Source: Escherichia phage Pu-Krd-SF3. Taken from it: a DNA stretch of 64,000 nt. Positions 7,307-7,509 of the stretch are shown here, piece after piece (within the stretch, counting starts at the first letter, position 1; each line of letters begins with the position of its first letter). Position numbers and translations under genes: made by a program. The stretch is from the sequence record PQ249397, one strand, 5' to 3'. The notes under the pieces were generated by a model. That model saw only the letters and a program-made list of their open reading frames with translations, was not told where the DNA came from and made no database searches.

Positions 7307-7509
7307 TTTATTGGAGATTCACTGCCTTAGTGTGAGCTAAAATCGAGGAGCCATCGAACTGTCTGATTAATGATTTGCGAATCATTATAGTTTTAAGACC
7401 CCGGCAGTTTTATGGTGTACCTCTTGAATGTGAATGATGACGGGTTTATGGTTATCCTGGTCGTTAAATATCCAAAAACCTATGTTCCCCTTGAGGGCTT
7501 TCGCAGGCA

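Follow-up and report, generated by a model that had tools for sequence, protein, structure and literature searches.

The spacer between rIII and 30.9 in this T4-like phage very probably consists of selected, transcribed, non-coding RNA structures. Comparison with relatives shows that the modules are separable cassettes that have been gained, lost, and exchanged, and that one of them, the four-helix element M2, has been exchanged even between unrelated coliphage families. A row of sense-strand RNA modules acting in cis is the best explanation of the spacer as a whole, and it is put forward as a tentative one.

The spacer contains the longest ORF-free stretch of the window, which is the whole 64,000-nucleotide stretch of DNA that was analysed. 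The window comes from a Tequatrovirus (T4-like) and is about 97% identical to T4 at this region; over positions 6900-7850, identity is 100% to Escherichia phage Pu-Krd-SF4 and 98-99% to AR1, RB27, and others. The preliminary description listed 7307-7509 among the longest gaps of the early region. These 203 nt have no ORF of 60 or more amino acids on either strand and form the longest such gap in the entire window, the next being 23516-23671 (156 nt) and 6911-7057 (147 nt). The true start of 30.9 is the ATG at 7552 (MAKQ...; MAK(Q/K)), which is kept in 35 or more relatives. The ATG at 7510, which opens a 72-aa ORF, is an upstream extension of 30.9 and is unconserved in relatives. The spacer at 7307-7551 is 97.2% identical to T4, where its counterpart has 244 nt (NC_000866.4 130541-130784, minus strand). 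The surrounding features are as follows.

Upstream, + strand: cd, 31.2, and 31.1, in that gene order, then gene 31
6575-6910, + strand: gene 31
7058-7306, + strand: rIII, T4-type lysis gene, stop codon at 7304-7306
7307-7551, + strand: rIII-30.9 intergenic spacer, 245 nt, non-coding
7540-7554, + strand: ribosome-binding region (AGAG) and start codon of 30.9
7552-7728, + strand: 30.9, very basic 58-aa protein, PHROG 1427 (unknown function)
7732-7753: strong terminator downstream of 30.9
7783-7811: early-promoter-like site behind the 7732-7753 terminator
7839-8171, + strand: 30.8

The spacer is a persistent feature of related phages. Forty loci were collected by means of the rIII protein, and further records were found with BLAST. 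A rIII-30.9 spacer of 120-416 nt is retained even where rIII identity is about 70%, and a single distant relative (L036) has a 30.9 homologue with a 9-nt spacer that lacks M3. The spacer is matched by 767 phage records and the inserted element M6, found in relatives, by 403; a few dozen were aligned.

On comparison of the relatives, a coding role for the spacer is excluded for practical purposes. A leader peptide had been suggested as one possibility, and a 35-aa ORF at 7412-7519 (+ strand) had been noticed. This ORF exists, as does a 47-aa ORF on the minus strand (7385-7528), and both are annotated in some GenBank records, but a small protein or leader peptide is extremely improbable. No spacer ORF is conserved among relatives. 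The 35-aa ORF lacks a Shine-Dalgarno sequence, T4 and most relatives have ACG in place of its ATG, and indels break the frame elsewhere. Neither ORF matches a PHROG family, the spacer has no Pfam match, and substitutions track base pairing rather than codons. The middle base of the ATG, T7413, is the 3' partner of A7353 in helix P2 of M2, and this A7353-U7413 pair of the window is G-C in T4 and most relatives, a compensatory change. The ORF appears and vanishes because the U of its ATG pairs in P2 and covaries. An old T4 entry has a 97-aa "ORF D" drawn over the spacer, and several GenBank records place short ORFs or a "glycogen branching enzyme" there, for which the comparison gives no support. 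Comparison of the spacers thus corrects spurious ORF annotations in many GenBank records.

The spacer is also free of T4 promoter motifs, which had been suggested as another possible content. None of the early (TTTACW-N17-TAYWAT), middle (TGCTT box plus TAnnnT), or late (TATAAATA) motifs scanned is found inside 7307-7551; outside it, a late motif lies at 6911, one of MotA type at 6520, and one of early type at 7783. Without a promoter of its own, the spacer would be transcribed by read-through from upstream promoters. A hairpin followed by a T-run, as in an intrinsic terminator, is likewise not found in the spacer, and terminator-like sites lie only at 7732-7753 and 7690-7706. The candidate hairpin H4b has a 14-nt loop and the tail AUUUUCGUUU, and does not have this form.

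For the spacer modules M2 and M3, as for the sister element M6, no matching family has been described. The Rfam 15 covariance models gave zero matches in 7307-7551 even at E up to 10, and zero matches at E up to 0.1 in ten related loci, M6 included. ARAGORN found no tRNA or tmRNA genes in window positions 6000-9000 or in the ten related loci. The 5,426 E. coli genomes searched contain neither M2 nor a similar sequence. In the published literature, nothing was found on the rIII-30.9 spacer, nor any report of a stable RNA from it. The whole spacer folded as one RNA gives z-scores of -0.6 for the + strand and -0.8 for the - strand, and only the separate modules give a signal.

The suggestion of a regulatory RNA is supported and extends beyond what was originally proposed. 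The hairpin that had been noticed around 7368-7390 is the apex of a covarying four-helix element, and the spacer also contains a pseudoknot and three conserved hairpins. The modules are listed below.

7318-7336, + strand: M1 hairpin, stem UUCAC/GUGAG, conserved 9-nt loop UGCCUUAGU
7339-7431, + strand: M2, four helices, about 85-93 nt, by RNAalifold and covariation
7345-7348 with 7420-7423, + strand: helix P1 of M2
7350-7354 with 7412-7416, + strand: helix P2 of M2
7356-7363 with 7403-7410, + strand: helix P3 of M2
7368-7375 with 7380-7387, + strand: P4, apical helix of M2, the hairpin first noticed
7364-7367 and 7388-7402, + strand: conserved unpaired junctions of M2, UGAU and UAGUUUUAAGACCCC
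7432/7433, + strand: cassette insertion point, empty in the window phage and in T4
7439-7484, + strand: M3, H-type pseudoknot, with S1 at 7439-7444/7456-7462 and S2 at 7447-7451/7480-7484
7463-7479, + strand: L3 of M3, GUUAAAUAUCCAAAAAC, conserved and A-rich
7487-7497, + strand: H4a hairpin, CCC(C)-UUGA-GGG, G+C-rich, within conserved GUWCCC..GGGCUUG
7503-7526, + strand: H4b hairpin, stem GCAGG/CCUGC, conserved 14-nt loop CAAUGUCAAUAAGU

The compensatory substitutions in M2, which occur in independent lineages, qualify it as a predicted conserved structured RNA motif. P4 is a perfect 8-bp inverted repeat, with TAATGATT (7368-7375) and AATCATTA (7380-7387) around the loop TGCG. By itself P4 is weak evidence because such repeats are common in the window (32 perfect 8-bp repeats of this kind vs about 11 in shuffles), and its weight comes from covariation in the relatives. 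The covariance analysis proposed for the hairpin was carried out, and the P4 stem covaries across relatives, being retained by compensatory changes (TATCGATT/AATCGGTA, TAGTGATT/GATCATTA, and TAACAATC/GGTTGTTA) while the loop varies. In the RNAalifold alignment of 12 distinct M2 sequences, 13 of the 25 base pairs have pair-preserving changes on both sides and 99% of the cells are paired. None of 500 shuffles reaches the observed counts, and when the partners are slid by 1-3 columns only 29-62% of the cells are paired. The minimum free energy fold of the single sequence is the identical structure (-24.5 kcal/mol, z -3.1, 0 of 200 shuffles), and the reverse strand folds worse. M2 contains two invariant G.U pairs and several variable ones, so that the fold exists on the + strand only, and this is the sense strand in all four of its contexts. 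The invariant unpaired bases are GGAGC and GUGUACC at the P1/P2 junction, UGAU on the 5' side of P4, and UAUAGUUUUA on its 3' side. Searched with a covariance model of M2 (R1), the 64-kb window yields one copy, which scores 116 bits. Two known motifs were considered for M2 and rejected. It has CUGAUUA where the hammerhead core requires CUGAUGA, and Rfam is silent; by inspection, the P1/P2 junction lacks the tandem G.A pairs of a K-turn.

The distribution of its homologues shows that M2 has moved among three or four unrelated E. coli phage families. The R1 search found clear homologues in Vequintavirinae, Kuravirus, and phi92-like phages. In the Vequintavirinae W70 and A73, M2 has about 80% identity and keeps all helices, with P1 changed from GAGG/CCUC to GGGG/CCCC. 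In W70, a sigma70-like promoter precedes M2 by about 135 nt, and the element is followed immediately by a tRNA-like gene, tRNA-Met, and a homologue of the T4 stable RNA rnaD. Within Kuravirus, M2 is carried by 172-1, XT32, SU10, and others, and by three metagenome or MAG contigs. There it occupies the 3'UTR between the stop codon of a phi32_6 homologue and a terminator-like hairpin ahead of terL, and P4 is wholly rewritten as UAACAAUC/GGUUGUUA. It is present in about 45 of 101 related records. The exact empty site is found in phiEco32, which retains the same terminator; KBNP1711 has a mini-M2 from which the apical half is absent, and phage Paul has a different hairpin cassette at this site. 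The Paul cassette has a similar layout to window positions 6926-6966, a weak lead with only a 10-nt exact match (E 2.5). In phi92-like phages, a copy of the entire spacer, 99% identical and joined to the 3' half of rIII, has been inserted ahead of tRNA-Gln. The insert is flanked by the 13-bp direct repeat TTTATTGGAGATT and occurs in at least 17 records, while VivaForever has the empty site, and it looks like a recent microhomology-mediated capture. A loose pattern scan of the sequence collection (CTGATTA..TAWRGTTTTA) gave chance matches only, and a second pattern (GGAGCYRTCGAA..GTGTACC) gave no additional M2 homologues. The homologues show M2 functioning, or at any rate persisting, in four genomic contexts that are unrelated, and its spread across families suggests that it functions independently of the neighbouring genes.

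M3 is predicted to be an H-type pseudoknot, with crossing helices that both covary in an alignment whose register was first set by hand. S1 has 6-7 bp and covaries strongly (GAC..GUC, GGC..GCC, GUGG..CCAC, GUC..GAC, and UAG/CUA vs UGG/CCA). The loop has 11 nt (UUNNNRGUYAU), and its 5' part pairs with the bases right after the tail to form S2, as UAUGG/CUAUG, GGUAG/CUACU, or GUUGG/CCAAC, with UCAAGG/UCUUGG and UUGUGAG/CUCACAA as further variants. In the hand alignment (A4), where the chosen register favours pairing, 92% of the cells are paired and there are four covarying pairs in S1 and four in S2. Because the register had been set by hand, the pairs were recounted on an alignment made by a model (A6), which has 24 sequences, including seven new ones. 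Pairing is 92.5% in S1 and 85.8% in S2, compared with 34-56% in slid controls, and the S2 pair 11-48 is broken in 10 of the 24 sequences. The M3 model (R2) finds a single copy in the window. Every examined T4-type relative whose spacer reaches 120 nt has M3, which is absent from W70 and Kuravirus.

The small hairpins have conserved loops, and by inspection their stems show compensatory changes in a few lineages; further cassettes are inserted at one point between modules in relatives. Inspection of the relatives shows that the CAC/GUG of the M1 stem is replaced by CGC/GCG, UGC/GCA, and AGC/GCU, in agreement with the MFE fold. M1 is optional, as it is missing from several relatives and lies elsewhere in the spacer in others. 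It has a 13-nt identity with the start of the phi92-type tRNA-Gln, and a decayed tRNA 5' half was considered and rejected. M1 covaries as a simple hairpin, and by calculation two genomes of about 150 kb should have hundreds of 13-mers in common by chance. H4a has the variants CCCUUCGAGG, CCCUAUGGGG, and CCUCUUAGAGGG (by inspection), again in agreement with the MFE fold, and it adjoins the rIII stop codon in some relatives. The H4b stem changes to AACUGG/CCAGUU with the loop kept in L019 and L034, and an A-U pair becomes G.U in L017 (by inspection, two lineages). Other lineages have a different hairpin with a 48-nt insert in place of H4b. A kissing interaction between the M1 and H4b loops was rejected, as it would have only 4 bp and is unconserved. 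At 7432/7433, relatives carry either a hairpin cassette of about 50 nt (M5) or a multi-helix RNA of about 145-153 nt (M6), whose ends pair in a covarying terminal stem that closes it. In GRNsp7, which otherwise matches the window at 99.1% identity, there is a 153-bp insertion at this point.

The aligned spacers are mosaics of blocks that are present, absent, or replaced as units, with indels at the module borders. M1 and M2 are both absent from the Tequatrovirus Nami and from L010, and the apical half of M2 is deleted in EO1 and STML-198 as it is in KBNP1711. M1 and M2 are therefore dispensable in natural Tequatroviruses, and any role they have is accessory. Conservation across related phages, one of the checks proposed at the outset, proved to be higher in the modules than in the flanking genes. 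Nucleotide identities between the window and Mosigvirus/Dhakavirus-type relatives are given below.

M2: 89-97%
M3: 98-100%
M4 (7487-7551, comprising H4a, H4b, and the 30.9 ribosome-binding region): 90-94%
rIII: 84-86%
30.9: 76-81%
Gene 31: 80-81%

Such high identity points either to strong constraint or to recent exchange, and in either case the modules appear to be more than filler. Part of the conservation could come from recent horizontal exchange rather than constraint.

The modules may be portable cis-acting cassettes for RNA processing or stability, which is the favoured mechanism but a doubtful one. They would be transcribed within polycistronic RNAs that run from promoters upstream of gene 31 and rIII into 30.9, act in cis on the transcript that carries them, and be recognised by RNA enzymes of the host. 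M2 occurs beside genes as different as 30.9, tRNA genes, and terL, and this indifference to context suggests that it probably acts in cis through host factors common to all coliphages. The motifs GAUUA (7365-7369) and AGUUU (7389) flank P4 and are conserved in three families, and the single-stranded bases there, UGAUUA before the helix and UAUAGUUUUA after it, look like RNase E sites of E. coli. For RNase E, Ehretsmann, Carpousis and Krisch reportedly proposed in 1992 a rule of RAUUW plus a stem-loop. With RAUUW or RN|WUU beside a stem-loop, a processing site next to P4 is possible; these motifs are short, A/U-rich, and chance-prone in a genome of 36% G+C, and the spacer alone has 3 matches to RAUUW and 12 to RNWUU. 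A cut by RNase E at the P4 flanks (GAUUA; AG|UUUUA) would protect the end of the rIII mRNA with a 3' hairpin and make M3, H4a, and H4b a folded leader at the start of the 30.9 message. The rIII and 30.9 cistrons would thereby be uncoupled in decay and translation. The basal imperfect duplex of M2, 17-19 bp long, could also serve RNase III. Dependence on host enzymes alone would explain how the same cassette could work in T4-like, rV5-like, and phiEco32-like phages. The invariant junction bases of M2 could equally mark a pocket for a protein or ligand, or tertiary contacts. RNase E control inside an intergenic region of a T-even operon has been described for the T2 arn operon (bioRxiv 10.64898/2026.06.19.733364). 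RIII has been reported to modulate S1-dependent RegB cleavage (PMC9409239), and nothing ties this effect to the rIII-30.9 spacer.

In the main rival reading, M2 (and, in relatives, M6) would be a trans-acting small RNA that lacks a promoter of its own and is cut from a polycistronic or tRNA-precursor transcript. This is unlikely; as an example, such an RNA might sequester a nuclease, a defence system, or an RNA-binding protein of the host by serving as a decoy or sponge. The genomic contexts are suggestive, since M2 of W70 lies within a tRNA and stable-RNA transcription unit beside the rnaD homologue, M2 of Kuravirus stands ahead of a terminator in the usual layout of 3'UTR-derived small RNAs, and the whole spacer has been captured into the phi92-like tRNA cluster and kept there. 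The terminal stem of M6, the presence/absence pattern, which suits accessory genes, and the conserved unpaired bases, which suit a binding surface, point the same way. However, M1, M2, M3, H4a, and H4b all lack a promoter or terminator of their own, tRNA clusters are also simply tolerant landing sites, no partner or target was found, and the E. coli genomes have no similar sequence. We know of no stable T4 RNA from the rIII-30.9 region in the classical labelling work. A portable pool of small accessory RNAs that fold autonomously and act in trans (M2, and in relatives M6 and M3), common to virulent coliphages of Straboviridae, Vequintavirinae, Stephanstirmvirinae, and Gordonclarkvirinae, is rather unlikely. 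Its members would plug into any transcribed spacer and might, for example, decoy a nuclease, an RNA chaperone, or an RNA-targeting defence of the host.

M3 with H4a and H4b may additionally serve 30.9 as its specific leader, working as a translational operator or as a sensor akin to a riboswitch, perhaps through autogenous binding of gp30.9 in the manner of the T4 gene 32 leader pseudoknot. M3 is a single-copy element found among the relatives examined only in the rIII-30.9 spacer, including those with rIII about 70% identical, the sole exception being the recent whole-spacer copy in phi92-like phages. A hairpin with an A-rich-tail pseudoknot is a fold used by small riboswitches and operators, and gp30.9 is very basic. 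Even so, the leader reading is improbable. S2 of M3 ends 67 nt before the start codon, clear of the ribosome-binding site, L036 has 30.9 without M3, Rfam gives no riboswitch match even at E up to 10, and M2 in its other contexts is left unexplained; the position of M2 ahead of the unrelated 30.9, tRNA genes, and terL argues against a gene-specific riboswitch. M2 as a processive antitermination element, which by analogy alone with the HK022 put RNA would modify RNA polymerase in cis and let it pass downstream terminators, is quite improbable. In Kuravirus it lies immediately upstream of the terminator-like hairpin preceding terL, in the window the strong terminator at 7732-7753 follows 30.9, and in W70 it precedes highly structured tRNA genes; but the Rfam scan gave neither sequence nor structural similarity to put or EAR, phiEco32 has the same terminator without M2, and truncated forms of M2 persist. 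Neutral debris, in which the hairpins persist through DNA recombination or hitch-hiking and have no RNA function, would fit the highly mosaic region with its indels at module borders, the useless rIII fragment taken along in the phi92-like microhomology transfer, and the shuffling of T4-type genomes at stem-loop cassettes, the PeSLs (PMC2839356, PMC4122927). It is nevertheless very unlikely. Compensatory substitutions with G.U asymmetry are unexpected at the DNA level, the modules are better conserved than the neighbouring genes, and M2 at 80% identity retains every helix in three families.

The coordinates in T4 (NC_000866.4) are 130661-130753 for M2, with the P4 flanks at about 130705-130730, and 130608-130653 for M3. 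The spacer contains at least two covariation-supported RNA folds for which no Rfam family or publication was found. To our knowledge, the only recognised non-coding RNAs of T4 are its eight tRNAs and rnaC and rnaD. As processing or stability cassettes, the modules would offer off-the-shelf components for adjusting expression from polycistronic messages, and they would supply a level of gene control so far missing from the picture of T-even phages. Action in trans would make them a novel type of accessory RNA in phages, one hidden even in T4, whose genome has been studied as thoroughly as almost any.

T4-type phages are already known to have structured RNA between genes and mobile cassettes with stem-loops. 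In a PeSL (promoter-early stem-loop), a terminator-like stem-loop is combined with an early promoter, which in T-evens reads TTTACW-N17-TAYWAT; such cassettes are present in many copies per genome (Arbiol et al. 2010, PMC2839356; Comeau et al. 2014, PMC4122927), and the copies are concentrated in hyperplastic regions (PMC4122927). Like PeSLs, the spacer modules are short, intergenic, and stem-loop-bearing, lie at indel borders, and are tied to shuffling among close relatives. The spacer is not a PeSL because the definition requires an early promoter, which it lacks; in addition, M2 and M3 are single copy, M2 crosses families, and the folds, with four helices in one and a pseudoknot in another, are more elaborate. 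The neighbouring stretch 7732-7811 does contain a genuine PeSL-like unit. Enterobacterial palindromes of the ERIC, REP, and MITE type occur in many copies per genome, move at the DNA level, and can affect mRNA stability. M2 resembles them as an imperfect palindrome of the 90-130 nt class (approximately) in transcribed intergenic DNA, with presence/absence polymorphism and internal indel variants. It differs in being single copy per phage genome and in having no terminal duplications at the filled and empty Kuravirus sites, and since each spacer module is single copy, the modules are not a repeat family.

Known phage RNAs provide the closer parallels. The T4 RNAs rnaC and rnaD (species 1 and 2) are small stable RNAs of the tRNA cluster whose role is unknown; they have tRNA-like ends and are processed by the tRNA machinery. 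M2 is likewise non-coding, structured, and promoter-less, and shares a transcription unit with the rnaD homologue in W70, but it has no sequence similarity to them. The T4 gene 32 leader pseudoknot and the preQ1-I class represent the H-type pseudoknot as an operator and a small riboswitch. Like these, M3 lies in a gene's 5' leader and has a hairpin loop that pairs with sequence beyond an A-rich tail, whereas its loop and tail sequences differ, it lies 67 nt from the start codon, and it has no Rfam match. Processing sites for host nucleases in phage mRNAs include the RNase III sites of T7 and the -71 RNase E site of T4 gene 32. M2 is similar in being an intercistronic, sense-oriented, long imperfect hairpin with internal loops and with A/U-rich single-stranded motifs beside the stem-loop, and dependence on the host only would make it portable. 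Unlike these sites, it has conserved junctions and a four-helix layout and no sequence homology to them, and cleavage is only inferred for M2. The spread of a single-copy RNA cassette of about 90 nt across families is unusual, and M2 looks like a previously undescribed portable RNA element.

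In many relatives the rIII-30.9 spacer contains an additional RNA element, M6, which always occupies this locus. M6 is a multi-helix RNA of about 145 nt (cggcaagtgcatgc...gctaacggtgtgcaacagataagag); it has a closing stem of its own at the ends and a GNRA hairpin inside. Compensatory changes are found in 18 of its 44 predicted pairs. The element is present in 403 phage records, which include phages of Klebsiella, Escherichia, and Enterobacter as well as other Straboviridae, and it is always found in one copy. For example, phage GRNsp7 corresponds to the window (99.1%) plus a 153-bp M6 insert. 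No Rfam match for M6 was obtained in a scan of ten related loci, M6 included, with E up to 0.1. The hairpin cassette M5 is smaller, about 50 nt, and has a variable inner hairpin within a conserved internal loop (AUGC / UAAGUC). Its position differs from phage to phage.

Window 7432/7433: exact insertion point of M6 (e.g. relatives L015, at 1865-2010, L032, and L025)
Between the four-helix element M2 and the pseudoknot M3: M5 in relatives L005, L011, and L016
Other spacer positions: M5 in relatives L022, L030, and L042

The UAAGUCGU string of M5 is also present in rnaD (species 2), a stable RNA of T4. A clear homologue of rnaD (...taagtcgtcggactgatg..atcacagcagaaacggcgcacc) is encoded by the Vequintavirinae phage W70 (L068 780-885), where it adjoins tRNA-Met. 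The same locus has an unusual tRNA-like sequence at 603-690, for which ARAGORN gave no call.

The whole window spacer is also present, with 99% identity, in phi92-like phages (Justusliebigvirus). In these phages the spacer is joined, at the ATGG of 30.9, to rIII codons ~43-82, and the insert lies between tRNA-Gly and tRNA-Gln. A 13-bp direct repeat, TTTATTGGAGATT, stands on either side of the insert, and tRNA-Gln begins within the 3' copy. The phi92 protein gp113, annotated as "putative rIII," is the rIII fragment of this insert.

L044 1284-1635 and L090 (phi92) 493-838: phi92-like insert
L089 493-505: empty site

The spacer between gene 31 and rIII (window 6911-7057) is the third-longest ORF-free stretch. 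Two hairpin modules lie 3' of its late promoter, and in relatives there is also a hairpin sequestering the Shine-Dalgarno sequence. A 48-nt element from this spacer recurs with 85-92% identity between rIII and 30.9 in other T4-type phages, where the closing stem is GGGAGC/GCTCCC instead.

Window 6911: late promoter TATAAATA, at the 5' end of the spacer
Window 6975-7022: 48-nt element tacaactgagagatctgtcgaaagaagatgaaattcagaagaacgtg, closing stem GGTAGTC/GACTACC

At the Kuravirus site occupied by M2 in others, phage Paul (L227 200-255) has a different hairpin cassette, with an outer stem, an inner 4-bp stem, and a loop ending in AAGUUAA-CC. This layout resembles the first module of the gene 31-rIII spacer (6926-6966). 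Because the sequence match is just 10 nt (E 2.5), kinship of the two is a lead rather than a finding.

Genes in public records over the rIII-30.9 spacer, among them ar1_216 and PHANOTATE ORFs, were rejected as spurious (window 7385-7528, minus strand; 7412-7519 and 7510-7728, plus strand). The label "1,4-alpha-glucan branching enzyme GH-13" that public records give to an extended 30.9 ORF of 72 aa is likewise spurious, and X17657, an old entry for T4, places an "ORF D" of 97 aa over the spacer. Among stretches that hold no ORF of at least 60 aa, window 23516-23671 (156 nt) ranks second in length.

Between 30.9 and 30.8, window 7732-7811 has a strong terminator, made up of the hairpin GAGGACTCCTTCGGGAGTCCTT and a T-run, and after it TTTACA-N17-TAGTAT. 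This arrangement agrees with the published layout of the T-even promoter-early stem-loop (PeSL) cassette (PMC4122927).
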